From a virus (Duplodnaviria; Caudoviricetes), in the IMG/VR virus record IMGVR_UViG_3300033141_002284, positions 1 through 58,011 of that record: 58,011 nucleotides of DNA; one strand, written 5' to 3'. The notes below the pieces were generated by a model. It saw nothing but the letters and a program-made list of their open reading frames with translations. It was not told where the DNA came from and searched no databases. The position numbers and the translations under genes were made by a program. Numbering within the stretch: position 1 is the stretch's first letter; each line of letters begins with the position of its first letter. Shown here piece by piece: positions 27,211-54,468 of this stretch.

Positions 27211-27630
27211 AAAAGGGGGCAACCAGCTCATTTGATTCTGCTTTGCCACCTCCAATAATATTTCCTTCAATATTCTAAAAGACATATTATCTTCCACCCA
27301 TTCAACTGTTAATGCCTCATAATTATCATTTCTGTATTCAAACAGAAAGTTCAGAACCGCAGTTAATTCTTTAAAAACAATTTCCCCGCCTTCATCAATC
27401 AAAGATTGTAAGGTTATCTTGTCCCATTTGACATTACCTTTCCGATCAGTCGGCAGATTTAATTTTTCCTTTAATCCTTCAACTGTCTGGGTTATCAGTA
27501 TGACAAACTTTTTCGCTCTTCCGATTGCCATTTCGTTCATGTTTATTTTTTTCGATCCTACTGTAAAAATCGTCAGCGACTCTGATAATCTCTGGATCAG
27601 TTCTGTATTGTTTTTCAAATCCTTTTCCAT
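27175..27630 (-). CDS. Tail assembly chaperone (gpG-like)
   Basis: Upstream of TMP; ends in ...LPPFFQ containing slippery C CCT TTT TTT. Confidence 0.75.
   Translation of the reverse strand: MEKDLKNNTELIQRLSESLTIFTVGSKKINMNEMAIGRAKKFVILITQTVEGLKEKLNLPTDRKGNVKWDKITLQSLIDEGGEIVFKELTAVLNFLFEYRNDNYEALTVEWVEDNMSFRILKEILLEVAKQNQMSWLPPFFQSKFSEVLMK
27208..27219 (-). other. Programmed -1 ribosomal frameshift site
   Basis: CCC CCT TTT TTT (X XXY YYZ). Confidence 0.75.
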
Positions 27631-28618
27631 CTCTTTTTACAACCTCTCTAAAATCAGCTTTGGGGAATTCTGTTATTATTCCTTCGCTGCAATCAAACAA
27701 CTGCGGTCTGTCTATTTTATAAATGCTCATTAATGCAATTTTATATTCTATCTGCTCTTCCGTCGTCTGAATACCATTGTCAGCCATATGCAATGGTCTA
27801 TTTAATTTATCAATACAAACACATTCATTTTCTATCCATCTTTTTTTCCATAACCATCTTGGCTCAAACGGAAAACGCCACGGGATTTTGTATTCATTTG
27901 TTCTATTTATCCCCCAAGGATAACCGAAATCACAACCAACCATAAACAGAGGATCATAGCCCATAAAATGCGCAGTCTGAACCATATTATTAACAACACA
28001 GCCAGCATTTAAAATTCTTGCCGTAATATAAGGAAATAAGATCGGATTTATAAAACTGAAAAACTCCGATCCAAAAGCCTGTCCCTTTACATATTCTACC
28101 AATTCCTGCATAGTCCAGTTGCCCTCAATTCCCGTTGTTTCAACTTTCGGCACGTGCATCATTAAATAATATATTTTTGCCCATTTCCACCATTTAAGCA
28201 TTGTCGAATCAACCGCCGGATGCGTTAATAAAACCGAACCTTTCCAATTATAATTTTGCAAATAAAGTTTCGCGGCACCACCATCATAGGCGGCTATATA
28301 TTCCGGTTGCCTGTCATGATAAACAAAAGCCGACGCCATTGTTTCCGGCACAAAAAAAGGAAGCTTACAATCTTTTAAAATAGACAAATATTTAATCAAG
28401 CTTGGCCCTGCGCCTACAATTACCGCTGGCCCTTTATATTTTTGTTTAAAACTACTTAAATCATATTCTTTGCCAGATTCAAATTCTTTTTTGACCAAAT
28501 TGAAATTCGACGCAGTAGACCATGCCCACTTAGGTAACCACGCTGCTAATACGCCTCTATTTCTTTGTTCCTGAGTTTGTGTTATAAATTCACCCCGATT
28601 GTTTTCCGTTTTTACCAT
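27479..28618 (-). CDS. Maf / MAF_flag10 (DUF115, MptE-like) family protein, putative glycosyltransferase
   Basis: PAVIVGAGPSL, QPEYIAAYDG, AGCVVNNMVQTAHFMGYDPLFMVGCDFGY; TAATG-coupled to the tail tube gene. Confidence 0.78.
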   Translation of the reverse strand: MVKTENNRGEFITQTQEQRNRGVLAAWLPKWAWSTASNFNLVKKEFESGKEYDLSSFKQKYKGPAVIVGAGPSLIKYLSILKDCKLPFFVPETMASAFVYHDRQPEYIAAYDGGAAKLYLQNYNWKGSVLLTHPAVDSTMLKWWKWAKIYYLMMHVPKVETTGIEGNWTMQELVEYVKGQAFGSEFFSFINPILFPYITARILNAGCVVNNMVQTAHFMGYDPLFMVGCDFGYPWGINRTNEYKIPWRFPFEPRWLWKKRWIENECVCIDKLNRPLHMADNGIQTTEEQIEYKIALMSIYKIDRPQLFDCSEGIITEFPKADFREVVKRDGKGFEKQYRTDPEIIRVADDFYSRIEKNKHERNGNRKSEKVCHTDNPDS

Positions 28619-29391
28619 TAAGTCTCCAAGCTCCATTCAAATAATTGTTTCCCTGGATTTTTTGACAAATCACCTAACAGATGGAATGTCATGGGAATAC
28701 CCGAAAATTCTGCCGCCATAGAAATAGCAGCATCCGATGAACCTATATGCTTTGCCCTAAAGCCTTTGAACTGTAGTGCTTTGCCGCCATCAAGAATGTG
28801 TACTAATTTTAATTCGGCTTCAAAATCGGCAAGTTGGCCACCGCCCGACAATATAGAAACTGTAGATGTTTTATTATATTCGACAATAACTGTATCGCCA
28901 TCACCGATGGTGGTTCCTGTTATTCTTGCAATTGTTCCGCTTGCTGCCGTAGAAGTAAAATCTGTTCCTCTCACATAAGCAGTCGCAAAACCCGGACTCC
29001 AAACATTAATTGTGCCAGAAATATATCCAGCTCGATCTAGCGTGTTTGAAGCATATCCTGCTAAAGTTTGTTCTTCCCGATATCGTTGTATCGAGCTTGA
29101 TGTTGCACTGTAAGCCGTTGTCGATATGGTCCCGACTGCATCAAACCCTGTTGCAGCATCATATACATATCTCATGTTGGCAAGATCAAAATCGGCAATA
29201 ACAACATCTATCTCCATTACTTCTTTGGTTTTTCGTGATATAACATTCACGCCATGATCTTCTAATCCGGCCTGAACGGTTTCTTTTGAATAACGAAAAC
29301 TCGCCTGACTTTTCGGGCTTCCCATCCGGACATCATTCCAATAAATTTGAACGGGCCCTATGGGGATTTTCTTCGCTACTGTTGTACTCAT
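28618..29391 (-). CDS. Major tail (tube) protein
   Basis: KIPIGPVQIYW..V.MG, ...GIPMTFHLLGD..K; Ig-like insertion; position. Confidence 0.75.
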   Translation of the reverse strand: MSTTVAKKIPIGPVQIYWNDVRMGSPKSQASFRYSKETVQAGLEDHGVNVISRKTKEVMEIDVVIADFDLANMRYVYDAATGFDAVGTISTTAYSATSSSIQRYREEQTLAGYASNTLDRAGYISGTINVWSPGFATAYVRGTDFTSTAASGTIARITGTTIGDGDTVIVEYNKTSTVSILSGGGQLADFEAELKLVHILDGGKALQFKGFRAKHIGSSDAAISMAAEFSGIPMTFHLLGDLSKNPGKQLFEWSLET

Positions 29392-43703: not shown

Positions 43704-44846
43704 TTATTCCTTCGCTTTATATCCTGGATTCTCAAATTCAAAAGAACCGTATACTAAACCATAATCATCAGATTGCTTTAATTCTCTTCCTTTATGTGGC
43801 TGTACAGAATCCCATTGTGTACTCACATATAATTTAGTTGACGTTTTTTTTATACATGGTAGATAACCATATTCAATATCATCATTTAATTCTGGCAGAC
43901 GACGTCCTGTTGTATAATTCTCAATATAGCCATATCCAGTATGCATCGGCCATAATCTATTTAACATAGAAGGACAATAAATTGAATTTTGATTTATTAT
44001 TAGATCATCAACCAAATCTTCCTTTATCCATTTTCGCCAATCTAATTTCGTATTACCTATTGGCGGCCCCAATATCTCACCAGTAGGAATACCAATCGCT
44101 AAAGATTTATTTGCTTTATTAAGCTCTGGTCTTATTTCTTTGATAAATTTGGTTAAATATGAGCCAAGCAGACGGCGCCAACTAACCAAATCAAAATCGT
44201 CAATATAGATATCTTTACCGTAAAGCTCATAATATTCTTTTCTTACTGGCTCATTAAATCCAAACTGATCTGCAAATTCGGCCGGTTTTGATTGCGATCT
44301 TAAACAGATAAACAATCCATCAAAATCCGTATTTTCTATTGAGCTTAAAAAATATTCTCTGAAATATTTGCGGACTTCCGGATAAGATAAACTTAAAACA
44401 CCCCACTGTCTTTTCGTTCCGCTTCTATCTACCCTGGCATATTCAGGATGTTCATAAGAGAATCTACTCATACGAGTATTATATTGTGCTGTATCAGCAG
44501 AATGATAACTGACTTTCCGTTCTTTTAACGGCGGCAATGGCCAACCTTCGTCAAACAGGTGGACATACAAATAGATTTTCATTCCCACCCTATGAGCTAT
44601 TGCCGGTATTTCATGGTCTTCCCAATCTATAGGAATGGCTTTTTTCTTTTTACGGATTATATTATAGATTGAATTAAAATATTTGTTTTCCGCTTTTCTT
44701 GTTCCCCGCCAAAATATTTTATCAGCATTCAGTCTTTCTTTCCAAATTGCCATTCTCTGCTCAATAGCATCTAGGGTAATTAATTGTCCATCTCCATTTC
44801 CTCCATAAGTGCGATGATCCCCCCAAGATACATTTACTATATTCAT
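43704..44846 (-). CDS. Glycoside-hydrolase-like TIM-barrel protein (GHL10/DUF187-like)
   Basis: AHRVGMKIYLY, LSLSYPEVRKYF, DFDGLFI, LDWRKWIKEDLVD. Confidence 0.65.
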   Translation of the reverse strand: MNIVNVSWGDHRTYGGNGDGQLITLDAIEQRMAIWKERLNADKIFWRGTRKAENKYFNSIYNIIRKKKKAIPIDWEDHEIPAIAHRVGMKIYLYVHLFDEGWPLPPLKERKVSYHSADTAQYNTRMSRFSYEHPEYARVDRSGTKRQWGVLSLSYPEVRKYFREYFLSSIENTDFDGLFICLRSQSKPAEFADQFGFNEPVRKEYYELYGKDIYIDDFDLVSWRRLLGSYLTKFIKEIRPELNKANKSLAIGIPTGEILGPPIGNTKLDWRKWIKEDLVDDLIINQNSIYCPSMLNRLWPMHTGYGYIENYTTGRRLPELNDDIEYGYLPCIKKTSTKLYVSTQWDSVQPHKGRELKQSDDYGLVYGSFEFENPGYKAKE

Positions 44847-45556
44847 ATTTCAATTATCTCTTTGTAAGCTCTTTCAATATCGGAATATCTCTCTGGGAAA
44901 AACCCTAAGTAATCGATTACCATATTCATTATTGCCATTTCGAGCGGATAATCAATGTCAATCTTAATTGCTGTTTTTCCCGGCGGCATAATATCACTAC
45001 AATCAACCAATTTGATTAATGGATCACCTTCCTTAAGCACATAGCAACACCAATATTGTTCTTCCATTTTTGCTGGATCGGAACATTTTTTCATAGCCGC
45101 TATTTGTGATTCCATATATATTTTTTTTATACCGCCAGTATTATGCCCGCTTATTGGTGATCCCCAAGGACTATAACTACCATAAGTCCAATAGTCCGGT
45201 TCTCTCCTCATTGCATCAATAAGTCTTTGTGCTATTTCCAAATCAAAAAAAGGGCTATCTCCCGAAACTGTTAAAGCATGGGTAATGCCATATTCATTCC
45301 AAGTTTCCAAATGTCTACTTGCCAAATTGTGAACATCACCCCGGTAACATTCGACTTGATTATCATCACAAATATTTTGAATGACATCATCTGAAGTTAA
45401 ATAAGAGGTTGACACAACTATCCCATCAAGATTTTTAAGATTTTTGCACTTTACAATTATTTGTTCCAACATCGGTTTTCCGCCCAACATGGAAATAACC
45501 TTATTCGGAAATCTTTCTGAAGAACAACGTGCTGTTATTAATGCAAATAATTTCAT
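44843..45556 (-). CDS. SpsF/NeuA-like cytidylyltransferase
   Basis: ITARCSSERFPNKV...LGGKPML, VVSTS...DD, YRG, VSGDSPF.D, IDIDYP. Confidence 0.85.
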   Translation of the reverse strand: MKLFALITARCSSERFPNKVISMLGGKPMLEQIIVKCKNLKNLDGIVVSTSYLTSDDVIQNICDDNQVECYRGDVHNLASRHLETWNEYGITHALTVSGDSPFFDLEIAQRLIDAMRREPDYWTYGSYSPWGSPISGHNTGGIKKIYMESQIAAMKKCSDPAKMEEQYWCCYVLKEGDPLIKLVDCSDIMPPGKTAIKIDIDYPLEMAIMNMVIDYLGFFPERYSDIERAYKEIIEI

Positions 45557-46230
45557 AATTTTTCCATCTCCATAAATGCTTTTTCTATTTCCTCATATTT
45601 TTCTGGATAATGGCCGATATATTCAATTACTTTATTTAATATTGCAACATGCAAAGGATAAGCGATATTCAAATCTATTAAGTATTTATTTCGTAAATTA
45701 GGTTCCTTCCAATCATGCAGAATAAAACCATCTTTTTTGGATTGTTTGGATTGCCACCATAGTTCTTGATCGGTTCCAGTCTTTTTATATTCTTCTATTA
45801 TTTCCCTAGAAGGTATAGAATGCATAATGCCCTCCGAATGAACATAGGCATATCTATAATATGCATACCCTGGTTTTTTTCTTATTTCTCGAATCACTTC
45901 GTTCATTATTTTTATCTCAAATAATGGCCAATTAGCAGGCATCGGAATAAAATAATCAAGATCATATTTCACAACAGCTTCGTAATATCTTAATCCTCGA
46001 TCATCCGGCGGGCCCGTAATATATTGAATTCCATATCGCCCCGCAAGATTCATCAACCATTTGTCTTCTGGATAATAAGTAGTTGATAAAATTATTTCAT
46101 CAAGGCCCTTTAGTTTTACCAATCTTTCAATCACTCTTTCAATAATTGGTACTCCTCCCAGTTTGGCTTTAATCTTATCCGGCCATCGACCATAATTAGA
46201 CCTTGCTAATACTACAGCTCCTATTCTCAT
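45553..46230 (-). CDS. Degenerate SpsF-like cytidylyltransferase paralog
   Basis: LARSNYGRWPDKI...LGGVPII, ILSTT; ANWP and LNIAYP replace GDSP and DIDYP. Confidence 0.75.
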   Translation of the reverse strand: MRIGAVVLARSNYGRWPDKIKAKLGGVPIIERVIERLVKLKGLDEIILSTTYYPEDKWLMNLAGRYGIQYITGPPDDRGLRYYEAVVKYDLDYFIPMPANWPLFEIKIMNEVIREIRKKPGYAYYRYAYVHSEGIMHSIPSREIIEEYKKTGTDQELWWQSKQSKKDGFILHDWKEPNLRNKYLIDLNIAYPLHVAILNKVIEYIGHYPEKYEEIEKAFMEMEKL

Positions 46231-46472
46231 TTCTTTCTCCCCTCTGCAAAATCTTTTAATATTTTCCGCACTTGCTTTTTATAGTTTAAATATTCTTTTA
46301 AAACACCTCCACCAGTTATTATCAGTTTTATTAAATAAAATGGTATTGCCATAATTAAAACTGCCAAAAAACCTATTGCTATCGCAAACATCCCCACAAA
46401 TAAAAACGGCGATAATATTATAAAGGCTATTATCTCTTCTGTTTTAGATAATTTTTTATCTTCATTATCCAT
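46227..46472 (-). CDS. Small membrane protein
   Basis: Long hydrophobic stretch; C-terminus paralogous to 46465-46728. Confidence 0.6.
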   Translation of the reverse strand: MDNEDKKLSKTEEIIAFIILSPFLFVGMFAIAIGFLAVLIMAIPFYLIKLIITGGGVLKEYLNYKKQVRKILKDFAEGRKK

Positions 46473-46728
46473 TGTTTATTCCCTTGTTTTTTTCAAAATC
46501 TTTTAATATTTTGTGTCTCTGTTTTCTAAAATTTATATATTCTATTATAAAATCAACTCCGTCTTTTGTTAATATTATAATCGCTTTTGGTATCGTTATT
46601 ATTAAACACACAAAAATCATTGTTATCGCAATAATTAGAATAAATGGCAGTGCTATCGGCATCGGCACTAACAATATCCAAGCGACTAATGGGTAAGCTA
46701 ATGATATTTTATTTTTTTTATCTGTCAT
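46465..46728 (-). CDS. Small membrane protein
   Basis: Start re-set to MTDKKNK; EYINFRKQRHKILKDFE. Confidence 0.6.
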   Translation of the reverse strand: MTDKKNKISLAYPLVAWILLVPMPIALPFILIIAITMIFVCLIITIPKAIIILTKDGVDFIIEYINFRKQRHKILKDFEKNKGINNG

Positions 46729-46730
46729 AA

Positions 46731-47558
46731 TTACCCCTTTGTTACTCCCGAAAAAATATTCTTTAAAAAATGCTTTTGGAACATTGCAAATATTACTAAT
46801 GGCGGTAAAAAAGCGAATGTAGCACAAGCATTTTTCAATCCATAATGCTCAAGCCCGGATTTAAAAAGTATCTCTGCACTGGTTACTATTTTCAATATGC
46901 CGACCGGTAAAGTATATATATTTTCTGATTGTGCTATTATTAGCTGCCACATTAAGGCATTCCATCCGCCTATAAATCCGATTAAAAACATAGCCGCTGC
47001 CGGAGCCATCGATAAAGGTATTACTATTTTTATCAATTTTGTTATTTCTCCGGCTCCATCGATCTCTGCAATATCTAATAATTCATTCGGAAATGATTTT
47101 AAAAATTGCCGATAAAAAAATATATAAACTGGTGAAGCTAATCCTGGTATTACCATTCCTGCTAAAGAATCATATAGTCCCATTTTTTTAATCATTAGAA
47201 ATAACGGTATCATTTTACTCTGCATTGGCACCATTAAGGAAGCTAGAAATAACATAAAAATAGTTTCTTTGTAAGGTATTTGTTTTTTTGCGAAAGCATA
47301 TCCACTTAATATACTAAATGATGTTGCTCCGAAAGCCCCGGCAGCCGATACAATAAAACTATTAAAAGTCCATCTTAAAACCGGCCATTTAAACAAAGTT
47401 ATATAGTTATTGATTGTCGGCTTTCTTGGTAGTAATGTCGGCGGCATAGCAACGGCGCCCAATGCTGATTTAAAAGAGCCGCTTATCATCCATATGACTG
47501 GAAATAAAAGAATTAGTGCTAATAATATTATTATTGTTTGATTAATTGTTTTTAACAT
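46731..47558 (-). CDS. Carbohydrate ABC transporter permease (MalG-type)
   Basis: FNSFIVS, GYAFAK, EAA-loop ELLDIAEIDGAG, WN.LMWQ, FQKHF..GVTKG. Confidence 0.93.
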   Translation of the reverse strand: MLKTINQTIIILLALILLFPVIWMISGSFKSALGAVAMPPTLLPRKPTINNYITLFKWPVLRWTFNSFIVSAAGAFGATSFSILSGYAFAKKQIPYKETIFMLFLASLMVPMQSKMIPLFLMIKKMGLYDSLAGMVIPGLASPVYIFFYRQFLKSFPNELLDIAEIDGAGEITKLIKIVIPLSMAPAAAMFLIGFIGGWNALMWQLIIAQSENIYTLPVGILKIVTSAEILFKSGLEHYGLKNACATFAFLPPLVIFAMFQKHFLKNIFSGVTKG

Positions 47559-47745
47559 CTATTTTTCTTCTACTGTGAAACTGTTTGGATGCTAAAATCA
47601 TCATATATGCCATAGGATAAAAACCGACTATTTTATCAAATTTATCTTTTATTCTTTTCTTATCCCCATCTGAACTAAAATAATAATATGACAATAACGT
47701 AAACACACATCCCGCCCCTAATATAATACCTGGTATTATTCCCAT
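47542..47745 (-). CDS. Small membrane protein inserted between the permeases
   Basis: GGAGG SD; N-terminal TM. Confidence 0.5.
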   Translation of the reverse strand: MGIIPGIILGAGCVFTLLSYYYFSSDGDKKRIKDKFDKIVGFYPMAYMMILASKQFHSRRKIDVKNN

Positions 47746-47862
47746 AATGTGCCTCCCGTAAAAATTGTTTCTTCTTTTTCTTGCTCAAGAAAGTTTTCAT
47801 ATTCCCTTTGATTCATTTTCTTTAAATATTTTATACCGCAATTAGGACAATATAAATCATAT

Positions 47863-48705
47863 TTATTTCCTATCAATCAATATTTTTTTCTGTATTACGG
47901 TTAATGCGATAATTATTGTAAATACCACCAGGCTTTCTGCCGCTCCCAGTCCATATTTGCCGCTTTGAAAAGCCCGTACAAAAATCTGATATACCAATGT
48001 AGTTGTCGCATAATATGGCCCGCCGCCTGTCAATACATATGGTATCTCCCAGATCATCATAACTCCGATTGTTTGCATGATTAAAATAAATGCTATTATC
48101 GGCAGCATTAACGGCATTGTAATATAGAGAGCTTTTTGTCTATCGCTACAACCATCTAATTCAGCGGCATCATATAGTTGTGTATCGATAGTCGATAAAG
48201 CCGACATATATAAAATAACATTTAATCCCATCCCTGAAGTTATCATAACAATGCAAATTGAAAAAAAAGCCGCTGGCATAGTTCCTGTCCAGATCACTGG
48301 TTCAATCCCGATTAATCCTATTATATAATTTAGCAAGCCATGCTGTGGATTAAAAATCCAGCTCCAAGTAATTGAAATAATCATCCCCGCCGATATTAGC
48401 GGAACATAATAGGCAAATCGTATAAATGATTGCATTTTTCTTGACATATCATGCGCTATCAATGAAACAAAAAACGAAACAAACACCAGTAAGGGAACAC
48501 TGAAAGCTACAATGCTTATAGTGGTTTTCATAGACTTCCAAAATATGTCATCGTTTATCAAATAGATGAAATTATCAAATCCTATGAATCGACTCACTCT
48601 GGCATTAGCTTTAAAAAAAGCAAGAGCAACACCTTGGATTGTAGGGATTGCTGTGAAGAGAATAAATATGAAGAGGGCTGGCGAAATCAACGCCAACCCT
48701 ACCAT
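47863..48705 (-). CDS. Carbohydrate ABC transporter permease (MalF-type)
   Basis: FIGFDNF, WIFNPQHGLLN, LYDAAELDG, LTGGGP, YGLGAA. Confidence 0.93.
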   Translation of the reverse strand: MVGLALISPALFIFILFTAIPTIQGVALAFFKANARVSRFIGFDNFIYLINDDIFWKSMKTTISIVAFSVPLLVFVSFFVSLIAHDMSRKMQSFIRFAYYVPLISAGMIISITWSWIFNPQHGLLNYIIGLIGIEPVIWTGTMPAAFFSICIVMITSGMGLNVILYMSALSTIDTQLYDAAELDGCSDRQKALYITMPLMLPIIAFILIMQTIGVMMIWEIPYVLTGGGPYYATTTLVYQIFVRAFQSGKYGLGAAESLVVFTIIIALTVIQKKILIDRK

Positions 48706-48721
48706 ATAGTTTTTTATTTTT

Positions 48722-50053
48722 TTATTCTGAAAGAAGCTTATTTGCACGACGGTCAAATTCCGCTGCCGCTTCGGCAGGTGTAATCTCATTTATTAACATG
48801 CCCTGGAGTACAGCCAACCAAATTTGGCGCAGCTCATTATATACCGGAAACCCTATGCCCATGTCGTAAATACCCCGATCTTTTATAATCTGTGACATCT
48901 GTTTCATCGCCATGCCAATAGTTCCTGAACTTGTCGGCATTCCGGCAGTTTTTAAAGGACTGAATTTTGAATAGACTTTTTGTAAAATTGTCTGTACTTC
49001 GGCCCCGGTTATATATTGTAAAAACTTTAATGCCTTTTCTAACTGAACAGGATCGCCATTATCAATAACCATAGCCAGATCTGGCCCGAAACATGGTGCT
49101 ACTCCATCAACTCCTTCAACGTGCGGATATTCCATTAATACACATTCGAATTCCGCCTCTACAACTCCGTCTTTTACGGCATATTTCCCTACCTCTATAC
49201 CAGCAGGAACGTAACCCCGCATTCCTAATTTGCCGGAATTGAACAACATAGCCATATCGCCATCATACAGTCCAGAGGCTCCATAAGGTACATAACCATT
49301 TTCATGCAGATAATGAATATATTCCATTCCTTTTATGCCTTCGGGAGTATTAAGAATCGCCTTGCCGTTTTCATAAAGATTAGCGCCAAATCCACCCAGC
49401 ATATTCAATACCCAATAATCACCGCCGCATTCTTTTGCAATAATATAGTAACCATAGTACTCATCGCCCAAGGCAGTAATAGCCTTAACTGCTCGATCAA
49501 ATTCCGCTACTGTCCATGATCTATCGGGATCATCGTCGACCGGTAATACATCCGCAACCCCCGCCTGTTCAAATAAATTTCTATTAGCCATTAAACAAAC
49601 AGCCCATCCAGGCATCGGCAAAGCATACAATTTACCATCTCGCTCAAATTGTGATAATGCCGACTTTTTAAATTGATCAATAAACTCTTTCGGCAATGCC
49701 TCATAAAGATTAACCCCAAAATCAGCATTGGCAAATTTATTGACTCGCCCACCATAACTCCAGATAACATCGGAAGGTTCACCGCTCGCTAAATCCATAT
49801 CAAGACTTTTCGTAGTATTGTCTATAGCATCTGAATATTTCCGTAATTCTATCTTAATTCCTGTTTCCTCTTCAAATTTAGGAATAATATTGTCTTTCCA
49901 TAGATACCCTGTAAAATCACGATTTGGATATTGCTCTTCGGAAACATCCGATACAATAGCGAAAATCAGCGGTTTTTCGACTTCCGGTTGACCTGTGGCA
50001 AATACCGAAAAAACCAACATAAATACCATTAAAACTAAAACAATTCTTTTCAT
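48722..50053 (-). CDS. Carbohydrate ABC transporter solute-binding protein (CUT1)
   Basis: Signal peptide; FEEETGIKIE, ASGEPSDV, DGKLYALP, NRNLFEQAG, FNSGKLGM. Confidence 0.92.
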   Translation of the reverse strand: MKRIVLVLMVFMLVFSVFATGQPEVEKPLIFAIVSDVSEEQYPNRDFTGYLWKDNIIPKFEEETGIKIELRKYSDAIDNTTKSLDMDLASGEPSDVIWSYGGRVNKFANADFGVNLYEALPKEFIDQFKKSALSQFERDGKLYALPMPGWAVCLMANRNLFEQAGVADVLPVDDDPDRSWTVAEFDRAVKAITALGDEYYGYYIIAKECGGDYWVLNMLGGFGANLYENGKAILNTPEGIKGMEYIHYLHENGYVPYGASGLYDGDMAMLFNSGKLGMRGYVPAGIEVGKYAVKDGVVEAEFECVLMEYPHVEGVDGVAPCFGPDLAMVIDNGDPVQLEKALKFLQYITGAEVQTILQKVYSKFSPLKTAGMPTSSGTIGMAMKQMSQIIKDRGIYDMGIGFPVYNELRQIWLAVLQGMLINEITPAEAAAEFDRRANKLLSE

Positions 50054-50077
50054 TCTTTTACCTCTTCTCTTTAATTT

Positions 50078-50100
50078 AATTGTAAACTCACTTTACAAAT
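50078..50100. repeat. Dispersed palindrome copy
   Basis: aattgtaaa ctcac tttacaaat. Confidence 0.7.
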
Positions 50101-50153
50101 ATTCCTGACAAATATTAATCTGCCAGGAATACATTTTTTCCACTACCTATTTG

Positions 50154-50693
50154 CTAATAATTAACTAACACTTTTGCATAGACACCGCCATTCAACGGTT
50201 CGGACGGTGCCACCTCAGCAATCTCGGCTCCGCAATCTGTCAACAAATAGCCTACGGTAAACTCAAACGGATCCGGTTTATAAGTTGCGGAGAATTCCGC
50301 ACCCTGCCAATCTTCCTGTTCGGGATCAAGTAAAGTACACGTAGTAACATTAAAGCCGAAATTCTCATAGATAAAATCTACCCAACTTTTATTTTTTCTC
50401 AGCTCTAAATCTTTCTCTCCATATATTTTGGAACCGAATACGAATCCTGCTACTGAATACTTAGCAGCAAAATCATATTCCCAAAATTTCTCATCGGCTT
50501 CCAGATCAATGTTATATTCACCGTTTGCATCAAACCGCAAAGGCCCGACTTCCAGGTAAGCTCCCTGGTTAAACCAAACTTTTTGATACTCGTCTCCCTG
50601 CATCCCAGATGTGGAAGTACTACCCCCAACATCAACTGCATAAATACCTACTGCTAATAGCAGTATCATCAAAAACAGTAAAACCCTCTTCAT
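50154..50693 (-). CDS. Putative outer-membrane beta-barrel (porin-like) protein
   Basis: Signal peptide MKRVLLFL...IYA; alternating beta strands; C-terminal GVYAKVLVNY beta-signal. Confidence 0.6.
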   Translation of the reverse strand: MKRVLLFLMILLLAVGIYAVDVGGSTSTSGMQGDEYQKVWFNQGAYLEVGPLRFDANGEYNIDLEADEKFWEYDFAAKYSVAGFVFGSKIYGEKDLELRKNKSWVDFIYENFGFNVTTCTLLDPEQEDWQGAEFSATYKPDPFEFTVGYLLTDCGAEIAEVAPSEPLNGGVYAKVLVNY

Positions 50694-50733
50694 CTCAATA
50701 CCTCTTCTCTTTTTATTTAAATAAGCCAACGGC

Positions 50734-52311
50734 TTATATTTCTTCTTTTATAATCATATTTATTAACTTTGGCGTTTCCGCTGTAAATCCCATAATATCG
50801 TACATCTTCGGATTAGCAGGATCAGACAAACTCAAGGTTTCTCCATAAGGAACTAAATAGTTAATAATTATTTTACAATTAGGATATTTTTTCTGATATT
50901 TTTTTGCTACTTCCGAAACATGCTCTTTTCCATACCATGATTGTCCATCAGTCCACATTATAATAGCATCATATTCTTGTTCAGTATCCATGGCATATTT
51001 TATCGGCAACGCACAATCAGTTGCATTATGAGTTGCATCTTTATAAACCAGTGATTGTGGATTTAATATATTCCTGAAAGCGGTTTTTTTAGTTAAATAA
51101 ATCGGATATAAACTTCCATCAAAACCAATTAAGTTATAATATGGTTCTCTGGCTATTGAAGCTCTTGCCATTACAGCTCCGATAATTCCAGGAGTAAGCC
51201 AAAGCGGTTGTAAATTTTGTGACCACATAGAACCAGAAGCATCTAGGCCATGCAAAATTCTTTTATTAATCGGTTCTATAATATCAAAACAATCCTCAAT
51301 CGCAGTTTCTAAAATATCACAAATAGCCTCTTCAGCTTTCCATGTAAGTTTAGTTTTTCCTAGTTGCCCGCCATTAGAATAAATATAATAAGCCGATGCT
51401 AAAACAACAGGATGGATATAAGCCCTTTGCAAATTTTCTCTCTTTAATTTATTTCGCAATATTTCTATATTCGCTATTTTATTAAATAATCCTTTTTCAG
51501 TTAATTGGCCTAAATTACGAATAGCAGCACCTACTGGCATTTTAATAAACAATGCTTCCCATATTGCCTTGGTTCTTTTAATATTTGCCGGTATCATTTC
51601 ATGAGTTAAATTGAGACCACTAATAGCTTTTATTACATCGACTTCATTAAGATCGGTTTTCATTTGTTCGTATGCTCTTATTCTCAATAAAGAATCATTG
51701 GCTTCTTTTTTTTCAGTAAAATATCCATAGAGATTGTCTTTTAAATCATTTTTTTTACCGACTGGTTTTATAATTCTTAATATGTCTCTTGCCGCAAAAC
51801 CATAACGATTCTGATATTTTAAAAATTGATATTCTAATTCTTGTACAGATTTATTATCTAGCCAACCCTTAACCGCTTTATGTATAACAGTGCCCTTTCC
51901 CCGCACTCCTTTAAGATAGGAAAAAAACTCATATAAATGAGAAGCAGTTCTGATAACTGCATTGAATATTTTCCTAAATGCTGGTTTCCCTCTTGTTGAT
52001 AGCCAAACCAGGGCATAAATCGGAGTATGAACAGAAATACCTTTTTTTGAAGCATAAAGGATAAGATCACCAACCTTGTCAGGATCGCTTTTGGCACATT
52101 CCAGAAATATTTTAACATTCTCTTCTGTCATTTCCTGTTTGCCTTGATAAAAAGCATTGCCCATGCTGCCGGTTAATAGCCATCTTTTTAATGCTTGAAA
52201 TGGATCCGTTTTAAAAGCAAATCCACCAGCCAAAAGTTTGGCCATTACCTTTTCTCTTCCAAGAATCAATTTACTCTGCGGTGCAGACACATTCATAAAT
52301 TTATAATCCAC
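50734..52311 (-). CDS. rsr: TROVE-domain Ro60-family ribonucleoprotein (Rsr) with vWA domain
   Basis: AGGFAF...LKRWLLTGS..FY, KYQNRYG...RDILRI.KP, LTHEMIP, MPVGAAIRNLG, IHPV.L, LDASGSM, TDCALP, WTDGQSW; start re-set to GTG after GGAGG. Confidence 0.92.
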   Translation of the reverse strand: MDYKFMNVSAPQSKLILGREKVMAKLLAGGFAFKTDPFQALKRWLLTGSMGNAFYQGKQEMTEENVKIFLECAKSDPDKVGDLILYASKKGISVHTPIYALVWLSTRGKPAFRKIFNAVIRTASHLYEFFSYLKGVRGKGTVIHKAVKGWLDNKSVQELEYQFLKYQNRYGFAARDILRIIKPVGKKNDLKDNLYGYFTEKKEANDSLLRIRAYEQMKTDLNEVDVIKAISGLNLTHEMIPANIKRTKAIWEALFIKMPVGAAIRNLGQLTEKGLFNKIANIEILRNKLKRENLQRAYIHPVVLASAYYIYSNGGQLGKTKLTWKAEEAICDILETAIEDCFDIIEPINKRILHGLDASGSMWSQNLQPLWLTPGIIGAVMARASIAREPYYNLIGFDGSLYPIYLTKKTAFRNILNPQSLVYKDATHNATDCALPIKYAMDTEQEYDAIIMWTDGQSWYGKEHVSEVAKKYQKKYPNCKIIINYLVPYGETLSLSDPANPKMYDIMGFTAETPKLINMIIKEEI

Positions 52312-52342
52312 TTTTACCTCCAATCTAATCAAATATCCTTCT

Positions 52343-52507
52343 TTAAATATGATTTTTCTTTTTTTTCCTATTATTGTTTTCAGTTAATTTATTTTCTAAA
52401 GTATTTATTCGTGTTGCAACATCTTTTATGGTTTTATTTGCATTCCATAATTTTTTTTGCATTTTTTTAAATGTTTCTATTACTTGTAATCGTTCATCTT
52501 CTTTCAT
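52343..52507 (-). CDS. Small basic coiled-coil protein between the Y RNAs and rsr
   Basis: Translated by hand, 54 aa: MKEDERLQVIETFKKMQKKLW...RKKKKNHI; GGAGG SD. Confidence 0.6.
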   Translation of the reverse strand: MKEDERLQVIETFKKMQKKLWNANKTIKDVATRINTLENKLTENNNRKKKKNHI

Positions 52508-52525
52508 CTATTCCTCCTAAAAAAT

Positions 52526-52593
52526 TGGAGACAAGATTTTAGCAAAAGGAGTTCATATCAAAGTTACGATAACCTTTCACAATTCAGTCTCCA
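52526..52593 (-). ncRNA. Y RNA-like, short (third in transcription order)
   Basis: UGGAGACUGAA...GGUUAUCG...UCUUGUCUCCA; ends pair with a Ro-type bulged helix. Confidence 0.75.
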
Positions 52594-52607
52594 TCGTTTT
52601 TTAATAA

Positions 52608-52749
52608 TAGGAGCAAGGAATGAGAAACGGAATGGGTTTCCCCAAGCGCTCTCCCAGACTGAGCTATCTACTTAATGAAAAATAGAATTGGATTCGAACC
52701 AATGACCTCTCGATTAAAATTCGATAACCGTTTTACTCTTCAGCTCCTA
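52608..52749 (-). ncRNA. yrlA: YrlA-type Y RNA with circularly permuted tRNA module
   Basis: UAGGAGCUGAA...CCUUGCUCCUA terminal helix; T arm AUUGG-UUCGAAU-CCAAU precedes a loop-closed acceptor stem and D arm GCUC-AGUCUGGGA-GAGC. Confidence 0.85.
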
Positions 52750-52769
52750 ATCTTTTTCCTTTTCTAAAT

Positions 52770-52830
52770 AAGAGGCAAGATTTTATGAAACGGATACACA
52801 TTGCCGATAACCGTTTCAATTCAGCCTCTT
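52770..52830 (-). ncRNA. Y RNA-like, short (first in transcription order)
   Basis: AAGAGGCUGAA UUGAAACGG UUAUCG...CCGUUUCA..UCUUGCCUCUU. Confidence 0.75.
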
Positions 52831-52841
52831 TAACTTTTTGC

Positions 52842-52870
52842 ATTGTAACATGTATCTTTATATCTGTCAA
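52842..52870 (-). promoter_or_regulatory. Near-consensus sigma70 promoter of the Y RNA-rsr operon
   Basis: TTGACA-17 bp-TACAAT with TG; predicted TSS about 5 nt before the first Y RNA. Confidence 0.8.
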
Positions 52871-52877
52871 GCTCTTT

Positions 52878-53111
52878 TTACTGTATGTTTTCCGCTATTA
52901 CAAACCCATCATTTATTATTAATCGCATTGGTTCTAATATACGTATCATTTTACCATTGCTATTTCTGATATACATTCCCCCTTGCTTCATTAGCCGCCT
53001 TGCTTCATTTCTGGACGTGCATAGTTTTGCTTCACAAAATAAGTCCAGGATATCTATGCCCTTTTTTATATCTTCCATTTTTAATATCGCAGTCGGCATT
53101 TCCCCGGTCAT
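52878..53111 (-). CDS. Stand-alone S4 RNA-binding domain (TyrRS C-terminal type)
   Basis: MPT......I..GIDILDLF.EAKLCTSRNEARRLMKQGGMYI. Confidence 0.8.
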   Translation of the reverse strand: MTGEMPTAILKMEDIKKGIDILDLFCEAKLCTSRNEARRLMKQGGMYIRNSNGKMIRILEPMRLIINDGFVIAENIQ

Positions 53112-53404
53112 TTATCCGCTCCGAAAAATCGGCCCGCTCGCTCTTCCATGTTTATCATCGGCTGTACTATCCGGCAAACATTACTTACCATTTTTCCTCT
53201 TTCGCATCGCCGATTTATAATATCAGCCAATTTAACAATAAAATTCTTTCCGCTTTCTGCTCGCTTTACAGCAATAAACTTTCCATAATTTTTATCGAAT
53301 TTATCTTTTGGATTACACAAACTATAGCCGATTTTTTTAGAACTCAAGGCTACTACAACACCTACTTTTTTGCCGCTTTCGCTTTTTACATAGTGTATTA
53401 ACAT
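53108..53404 (-). CDS. Conserved hypothetical phage protein
   Basis: IGYSLCNPKDKFDKNYGKFIAVKRA. Confidence 0.7.
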   Translation of the reverse strand: MLIHYVKSESGKKVGVVVALSSKKIGYSLCNPKDKFDKNYGKFIAVKRAESGKNFIVKLADIINRRCERGKMVSNVCRIVQPMINMEERAGRFFGADK

Positions 53405-53417
53405 TGTTTATCTCCTT

Positions 53418-53606
53418 TTATCTGCTACATCTCTCAATTGCATCAATCAAATCATCTGCACGAAATGTATATTGCTCATTGCCAATATGAATATATACTA
53501 AACAATCATAATTCCAATGAGAACAAATTTTTAACTTCACATATTCACTACCAGTTGAACCATCACCTGTTTGCCCTTGCACTTCCACTGTTATTTCATT
53601 TTTCAT
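53418..53606 (-). CDS. Hypothetical protein
   Basis: AGGAGG SD; 62 aa. Confidence 0.55.
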   Translation of the reverse strand: MKNEITVEVQGQTGDGSTGSEYVKLKICSHWNYDCLVYIHIGNEQYTFRADDLIDAIERCSR

Positions 53607-54270: not shown

Positions 54271-54468
54271 TTATACCTCCACTCTTTTATTCCATGCTTC
54301 AATTGCCTTTTCTTTCGATGTAAAAAACTCATTCGGGTCACCCGGCATTACAACACATCCCTCAACACAAAATACTTTCCAGCTATGCTTATTTGTTATT
54401 GAGTCGTTGTGTGTAAAAGCGTTACCATTGCAAAATGGACACGGTTTCAAATTATATCTGCTTATCAT
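54271..54468 (-). CDS. Lar-family restriction alleviation protein
   Basis: LKPCPFCNG.A...VFC..GC...KEKAIEAWNKR. Confidence 0.8.
   Translation of the reverse strand: MISRYNLKPCPFCNGNAFTHNDSITNKHSWKVFCVEGCVVMPGDPNEFFTSKEKAIEAWNKRVEV

Follow-up and report, generated by a model that had tools for sequence, protein, structure and literature searches.

Does a tailed phage that carries a gene for Ro60 (Rsr) also carry Y RNAs for it, and what form do these take? The question is raised by positions 50734–52870 of virus record IMGVR_UViG_3300033141_002284 (Duplodnaviria; Caudoviricetes), where a promoter, three small structured RNA units, a short open reading frame (ORF) and an rsr gene follow one another on the minus strand. 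The window analyzed here is the whole of this virus record, 58,011 bases with direct terminal repeats, and is rated 100% complete. The locus is most probably a phage-borne Ro60 (Rsr) ribonucleoprotein cassette. The identity of the gene, the conservation of structure in the RNAs and the linkage of these RNAs to rsr are all observed.

The product of the gene at 50734–52311 (minus strand) is, judged by its domains and its database matches, a Ro60/Rsr orthologue, with 525 aa from GTG 52311, a TROVE domain, a Ro60-type vWA domain and a MIDAS motif of the form DxSxS. Pfam TROVE (PF05731) matched at 74.8 bits against a cut-off of 23 (E 1e-20) and vWA_Ro60 (PF25045) at 85.2 bits against a cut-off of 27.7 (E 6.4e-24), so that the TROVE/vWA gene claimed in the first-pass annotation clears both curated cut-offs. 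There was also a match to phrog_850, an “RNA-binding protein” family (1.1e-33), and matches in PDB to human Ro60 (9nen, 3.7e-41), the Xenopus protein (1yvp, 5.3e-41) and Deinococcus radiodurans Rsr (2nvo, 5.3e-35), each spanning about residues 31–529. The MIDAS residues D357, S359 and S361 were invariant in 6 relatives. The frame is open from TTG 52332 (ORF 50734–52332), but GTG 52311, with GGAGG five bases upstream, is the likely start because it is in line with the starts of relatives, the equivalent codon in the closest relative being ATG. In GenBank, 361 phage records have a Ro-like protein, all of them less than 60% identical to the window Rsr, with about 28–30% identity among the 30 listed.

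Three RNA units lie within 520 bases upstream of rsr and on the same strand. In minus-strand order the promoter is followed by unit 1, a 20-nt A-rich spacer, unit 2, a 14-nt spacer, unit 3, a U-run and the ribosome-binding site of the small ORF (ORF54). The promoter is of sigma-70 type, TTGACA-17-TACAAT with a TG extension (52842..52870, minus strand); it stands 11 bases before unit 1 and, with 11 of 12 consensus matches, is the best of nine promoter-like sites in 50000–53500. Unit 1 (52770..52830, minus strand) is a minimal unit of 61 nt with a fold of -20.5 kcal/mol (z -3.95), in which a 7-bp basal stem is followed by a bulged U, G.U and A-U pairs and an internal loop, with an 8-bp inner stem, UUAUC and a small apical loop above. 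Unit 2 (52608..52749, minus strand) is 142 nt long with a fold of -41.8 kcal/mol (z -2.43) and combines the same kind of bulged basal end, called the handle in what follows, with a permuted tRNA-like domain. Unit 3 (52526..52593, minus strand) is again minimal at 68 nt, with a fold of -20.7 kcal/mol (z -5.19) that none of 200 shuffles equalled in stability; AAUUUUUU and then the ribosome-binding site of ORF54 come after it. ORF54 itself (52343..52507, minus strand) is a lysine-rich frame of 54 aa with AGGAGG five bases before its ATG; it has no Pfam or PHROG family match and is found neither in the closest relative nor in any other relative read.

All three units have a GCUGAA-type 5′ end, a CUUG 3′ end and an internal GGUUAUCG, and of the 4 occurrences of GGTTATCG in the window, where 1.04 are expected, 3 are inside units. 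The terminal stems differ in sequence while pairing in each case, being AAGAGGC/GCCUCUU in unit 1, UAGGAGC/GCUCCUA in unit 2 and UGGAGAC/GUCUCCA in unit 3. The first-pass annotation had described most of this from the letters alone, and its description holds: the promoter was found at 52870..52842 on the minus strand with its 11 of 12 matches and TG extension, the 54-aa ORF is present at 52507–52343 with a strong ribosome-binding site, the shared ends, the internal element and the stem sequences can be read in the window sequence and in the folds, and each of the proposed self-closing units does fold closed, with identical boundaries reproduced by two covariance models, R1 and R2.

Comparative evidence was obtained as well. 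Relatives of Rsr with 35–84% identity were drawn from viral, genome and metagenome contigs, the scan of genome contigs giving a single relative on a 3.1-kb contig of a metagenome-assembled genome without upstream DNA; their loci are referred to by L numbers. Read by eye, the regions upstream of rsr in these relatives contain rows of units of the same type. Thirteen short units were aligned by MAFFT, blind to structure, and both ends aligned cleanly; from this alignment RNAalifold returned a 7-bp basal stem with 6 of 7 pairs compensatory, which bears out the covariation of terminal stems that had been proposed from the three window units. Model R1 was made from the same 13-unit alignment, with handle and inner helix annotated. 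Searched against 91.4 kb with filters off, it returned 21 matches at E≤1.1, every one on the rsr strand and upstream of rsr, and 8 of the 21 were outside the training set, among them unit 2 of the window at 27.2 bits; the other 15 listed matches were noise (≤13.3 bits, E≥2.2). Over the 21 units 92.1% of cells pair versus 68.6% when shuffled, 13 of 16 pairs have changed on both sides (a count reached by 3 of 500 shuffles) and the covariation score is 0.639 versus 0.217. On four of five measures no shuffle of 500 reached the observed value, and when the 3′ partner was slid by 1–3 columns pairing came to 46–55%. Model R2 was made from 11 units of six other contigs (MAFFT alignment A6) and holds no window sequence; on both strands of the 58,011 bases it detected unit 1 (45.5 bits, E 1.9e-7), unit 3 (36.6 bits, E 1.5e-5), unit 2 (29.9 bits, E 4e-4) and only these, the next match having 12 bits and E 2.5.

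Linkage to rsr was counted after duplicate loci were merged (L001, L002 and L003 the same, L006 and L009 the same, L004 close to L014 and L005 close to L019). Sixteen of the loci left by this merging have 500 nt or more of sequence ahead of rsr, and in 14 of the 16 at least one unit (E≤0.01) was found upstream on the same strand; the longest rows were of six units, in L018 and L004. The closest relative, L011, in which Rsr is 84% identical, has TTGACA-17-TATAAT 9 bases before its first unit, then three orthologous units, and then rsr about 20 bases after unit 3, without ORF54 and without the S4-like ORF that stands ahead of the promoter in the window. Between L011 and the window the inner helices of units 1 and 2 have been kept through compensatory changes. 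Similar promoters were read ahead of the first units in L004 and L010. Other features were seen in these arrays. In L001 an HNH endonuclease ORF (about 950–2209) lies inside the array, between the units at 864–949 and 2210–2328. In L004 a seventh candidate unit at 2634–2800, identified by eye and not called by R1, has an 8-bp basal stem and an atypical 3′ side with UG instead of UU before the stem.

The handle itself is formed at the end of the basal helix, where the 21 units have a C-G pair in 20 cases (one U.G), a bulged U in 21, a G.U pair in 21 and an A-U pair in 17, giving the sequence GCUGA(A/C). In the excerpts of published work used here, the motif GNCGAAN0-1G occurs near the 5′ end of bacterial Y RNAs and is likened to the GGUCCGA contacted by Xenopus Ro60 (Chen et al. 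2014, PMC4201824), and a conserved CGAA is reported in the Yrl RNAs of Thermus phage phiLo (PMC12135203). On its sequence GCUGA(A/C) is the same element, a one-base variant with U for C at the bulge. Both bulge versions, C and U, occur in L010, the most distant relative (35% identity), as GCCGAAUG and GCUGAAUUG. A second constant feature is UUANC, which comes straight after the inner helix in all 38 units at E≤0.01, in a model that itself favours UUANC. The parts of the literature examined contain no description of UUANC, and nothing was found in the literature searched on the U-bulge variant or on this Rsr clade. K-turn and C/D-box motifs require GA for tandem sheared pairs; such a reading of CUGA was rejected, the 3′ strand having no GA. 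The three units had earlier been read as Y RNA-type partners of Rsr, and this is supported by where they lie and on which strand, by helices that covary and by their version of the published Ro60-binding motif.

Unit 2 differs from its neighbors in its apical part, which the first-pass annotation had read as a permuted tRNA mimic, and the arms are indeed found in the order known from YrlA. A T arm (52703–52687) with 5 bp and the loop UUCGAAU is followed by a closed 7-bp acceptor-like hairpin (52686–52667) and, after U-A, by a D arm (52664–52648) with 4 bp and GG in the loop. The Rfam YrlA model (RF02553) aligned to unit 2 over its full length, 1–114, at 36.6 bits (E 2.5e-6, sensitive mode, 651-base search), with the T and D arm columns at high posterior. 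A fold constrained to the arms has -40.8 kcal/mol, versus -41.8 for the minimum free energy (MFE) structure. An analogue of the anticodon stem could possibly be formed over a long range by 52713–52709 with 52646–52642. The equivalent stem, with different bases, was read in L004 (4 of 5 pairs) and in L018 (5 of 5 pairs), and because it covaries in these two loci the YrlA four-way junction is taken as the conserved form. A YrlA-type permuted tRNA mimic in unit 2 is therefore supported, as far as sequence and predicted folding go. A competing local hairpin of 4 bp, with the 7-nt loop AUUUUAA, was considered as an anticodon-loop decoy and dropped as probably incidental; it is not conserved, having a 6-nt loop in L004 and no counterpart in L018, while the competing long-range stem covaries.

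Unit 2 of L011 is only 77 nt long, with flanks nearly identical to those in the window and the 65-nt tRNA-like module missing, and the absence of the module from so similar a unit indicates recent gain or loss. Both T and D arms were present in only 3 of the first 25 units, with a fourth such unit in L018. This scarcity is in keeping with the rule, in the excerpted account of bacterial Y RNAs, of one tRNA-like Y RNA plus simpler ones per species (PMC4201824). In L010 (2552–2940) the tRNA-like Y RNAs appear to be unpermuted. One of them (2552–2674) scores 49.5 bits on the tRNA model, and its anticodon loop is enlarged by an insert of 52 nt containing a handle capped by a small loop; two further unpermuted RNAs have open 7-bp acceptor stems by eye, and the YrlA model also reads a permuted frame across neighbors at 23.3 bits.

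Several observations weigh against these readings. At gathering thresholds Rfam gave 0 matches in the whole window, and no metazoan Y RNA family was listed in 52300–52950 even at E≤10. The check with Rfam YrlA and Y RNA models proposed in the first-pass annotation thus gave a full-length match of YrlA to unit 2 that is below threshold, with nothing at a gathering score and no metazoan Y RNA among the matches. A look-up of public sequencing runs for 52300–52900 listed none. The YrlA score of unit 2 is about half of the gathering score of 69, a difference from the YrlA family. The fold of unit 2 has a modest z-score, and adding the 5-bp long-range stem to the arms gives -34.5 kcal/mol, a further 6 kcal/mol, so that the YrlA-like conformer with this stem lies 7 kcal/mol above the MFE. 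The published CGAA form of the motif, GNCGAAN0-1G, does not occur in the units, which have U in the C position in 38 of 38 tabulated cases, in a table that is biased because the model was trained on U. The shuffle controls on the 21 units overstate significance, since these units are related to one another and A3, their alignment, was made to fit the structure in the model. Finally, L012 and L025 have no unit detected in the upstream DNA searched, and there rsr has its own promoter.

An alternative explanation could be that the units are a structured 5′ leader of the rsr mRNA, acting in cis as Rsr-binding sites or attenuators. This is compatible with a Y RNA cassette and would account for the position of the units between the only strong promoter and rsr, and for the U-run in which unit 3 ends just before the next ribosome-binding site. 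A further hint of autoregulation comes from the start region of rsr itself. Of 17 related rsr genes, 12 (L001, L004, L006, L008, L012, L013, L016, L017, L018, L020, L022 and L025) have a handle-like YUGAA no more than 25 bases from the start codon; among 104 other ORFs in that DNA, each of 100 aa or more and preceded by a Shine-Dalgarno sequence, the number is 4. The motif either follows a small hairpin and comes just 5′ of the Shine-Dalgarno sequence, or lies in the interval from that sequence to the start codon. L011, L005 and L010 lack YUGAA, and L021 has CUGAG. YUGAA may be an Rsr autoregulatory site, and because it is enriched in rsr start regions free Rsr might be a repressor of its own production that the Y RNA array titrates. 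The window itself, however, is without the start-region YUGAA, up to six units with different apical modules and with true tRNA genes between them are hard to explain as a leader, and in the published cases Y RNAs encoded ahead of rsr accumulate after being cleaved out of a precursor (PMC4201824). A leader is accordingly an unlikely account of the units.

It could also be that the units are remnants of a decayed phage tRNA cluster with no functional tie to Rsr. Unit 2 does score 27.7 bits on the tRNA model RF00005, short of the gathering score of 29 and in an out-of-register reading, and true tRNA genes are found among the units upstream of rsr in L004 (Gly-GCC, 2481–2551) and L005 (His-GUG and Trp-CCA, 2627–2697 and 2865–2938). 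But units 1 and 3 and most units of the relatives have no tRNA arm, and the few with both arms have been noted above; what is conserved is the handle and the inner helix, in which compensatory changes have preserved pairing; ARAGORN found 0 tRNA or transfer-messenger RNA genes in the window; and the order of T arm, closed acceptor and D arm is the permutation of YrlA and not that of a broken tRNA. This origin is highly improbable. The interleaving of tRNA genes with Y RNA units suggests shared processing of precursors. That the units are chance hairpins or generic repeats (terminators, or elements like repetitive extragenic palindromes) has a negligible probability, since, although the intergenic region is AT-rich and a loose scan for a stem-NGA...UU-stem pattern is unspecific with hundreds of matches, a model trained elsewhere picks exactly the three units in 58 kb, the 21 units covary, and the position is conserved in 14 of 16 loci.

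The phage-borne Ro60 cassette that we prefer would work as follows. One promoter would drive a precursor containing the three Y RNAs, the small ORF and rsr, and the units would be released by cleavage at the A/U-rich spacers. Each Y RNA is closed by a basal helix, free to vary in sequence, that ends in the handle of C-G, bulged U, G.U and A-U; this corresponds to the GNCGAA / GGUCCGA element and is the presumed docking site for the putative ring of the phage Rsr. Above the handle come the internal loop, the covarying inner helix, the invariant UUANC and a variable apical module: a short loop caps units 1 and 3, and a circularly permuted tRNA mimic of YrlA type caps unit 2. By analogy with D. 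radiodurans, Salmonella Typhimurium and phiLo, the apical modules may tether Rsr to host factors such as PNPase, and Rsr so tethered could re-programme or damp host RNA decay during infection. We infer co-transcription, cleavage in the spacers, binding by Rsr, tethering of a partner and the biological role from such comparisons.

A bolder extension is that the handle is a portable cassette set on exchangeable apical modules and matured by host tRNA machinery, each phage thus having its own kit of Ro adaptors. We regard this as doubtful. Compatible with it are the unit 2 module, absent in L011 and present in the window alongside the S4-like ORF and ORF54, the tRNA genes among units in L004 and L005, the handle in anticodon loops of L010, and the YUGAA in rsr start regions. 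If this is true, Rsr could be directed by the adaptors to several RNA enzymes of the host, or the adaptors could be tRNA-like decoys against defences that target tRNA.

Phage Ro60 with upstream Y RNAs has already been published, and the window holds a divergent phage form of a known system; what follows on published systems draws on excerpts of the cited papers. Y RNA-like genes have been reported beside rsr in 254 bacteria and 22 phages, the latter mycobacteriophages (Chen et al. 2014, PMC4201824), with at least 2 Y RNAs in every bacterium studied and, in Mycobacterium smegmatis, YrlA and YrlB on one precursor upstream of rsr (PMC4201824). The Ro60 of Thermus phage phiLo binds two upstream Yrl RNAs, and its complexes with host PNPase slow RNA decay in vitro (NAR 2025, PMC12135203). 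The window resembles phiLo in having a phage Ro60 with Y RNA-like genes directly upstream and a 5′-3′ stem flanking a bulge with a conserved motif, and in that neither PNPase nor RtcB is encoded, for which use of host factors is presumed (PMC12135203). It differs in having three RNAs with UGAA, one of them a tRNA mimic, in place of two RNAs with CGAA. The two Ro60 proteins are so far apart that a PDB sequence search with the window Rsr at E≤0.001 returned those of human, Xenopus and Deinococcus and not the phiLo entry. Binding and attenuation of PNPase have been demonstrated for phiLo and are putative in the window.

M. smegmatis and the mycobacteriophages resemble the window in that their Y RNA genes precede rsr, share its strand and have a motif close to the 5′ end; in M. 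smegmatis a tRNA mimic that has a 7-bp acceptor-like stem is likewise accompanied by a simpler hairpin (PMC4201824). The motif there is GNCGAAN0-1G versus GCUGA(A/C) here, and the host there belongs to the Actinobacteria, whereas the only host lead for the window is to Spirochaetota. Salmonella Typhimurium rsr-yrlBA-rtcBA offers the same T arm, closed acceptor-like stem and D arm, a counterpart of the anticodon stem that the 5′ and 3′ strands form, and a second Y RNA that is not tRNA-like (10.1101/312249), but its RNAs are downstream of rsr, its acceptor-like stem has 6 bp in contrast to 7 in the window (10.1101/312249), and the window has no RtcB/RtcA partner. With metazoan Y RNAs the units share an end helix with a single bulged pyrimidine beside conserved pairs (PMC4201824, PMC12135203); here the bulge is U, not C, and the genes are those of a phage with a bacterial-type promoter.

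The absence of a recognizable rtcB, also claimed in the first-pass annotation, was upheld by an aimed search in which RtcB was not found in the complete phage genome; the same search was positive in 10 of 14 known genomes used as a control. Family scans with Pfam and PHROG found no RNA ligase or kinase among the 91 ORFs. Almost all genes of the phage are on the minus strand, and they include a replisome organiser, a DnaC-like loader, terminase, portal, tape-measure protein, an endolysin-like peptidase, Erf, SSB and ParB, with the Ro60/Y RNA locus located between the replication module and the packaging module. Just upstream of the Y RNA promoter there is an ORF of 77 aa (52878–53111, minus strand) to which Pfam TyrRS C-terminal and S4 RNA-binding domains matched below threshold only. 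A single-sequence model of its product (predicted local distance difference test score 80) had no Foldseek match in PDB at E≤0.001, and the best non-significant rows, TyrRS C-terminal, Hsp15 and S4-type domains at E 0.2–2, are a lead only. L011, which is without this S4-like ORF, is likewise without the tRNA-like module in unit 2.

At the rsr stop codon there is a 7-bp palindromic hairpin (50721..50737, minus strand, listed on the plus strand as a palindrome) that is possibly a weak terminator. Directly downstream of rsr lies a cargo block (43704–50729, minus strand) with a 191-aa signal-peptide protein having an aromatic C-terminal residue, an SBP_bac_1 ATP-binding cassette (ABC) solute-binding protein, two BPD_transp_1 ABC permeases, two CTP_transf_3 cytidylyltransferases and one GHL10-like protein; an ATPase was not seen in the family scans. 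From its domains this looks like a module for uptake and activation of a sugar or nonulosonic acid, which phages do not usually carry. In the Atlas, the clusters closest to the phage solute-binding protein come mostly from Spirochaetota, which is a lead to the host only. A protein like MptE is encoded at 27479–28636. Candidate anti-defence genes at 2251–2646 and 54271–54468 (both minus strand) have matches to the Tad4 family of type I Thoeris inhibitors (33.5 bits, cut-off 25) and to Lar restriction alleviation (47.3 bits).

The general picture of Ro60 systems is unchanged by this locus. Ro60–Y RNA particles are conserved all the way between bacteria and humans, but very little work has addressed what they do when a phage infects, and phiLo, which damps host PNPase, is in the literature excerpted here the sole phage system studied biochemically. 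To this the locus adds a compact and complete phage genome in which one cassette encodes three such RNAs. It also provides a covariance model that covers, across the clade, Y RNAs missed by the public RNA library, a Ro60 recognition element in which U naturally replaces C, and a tRNA-like module that has been gained or lost naturally between close relatives. These natural variants are ready constructs with which the contributions of the handle and of the tRNA mimic could be separated.

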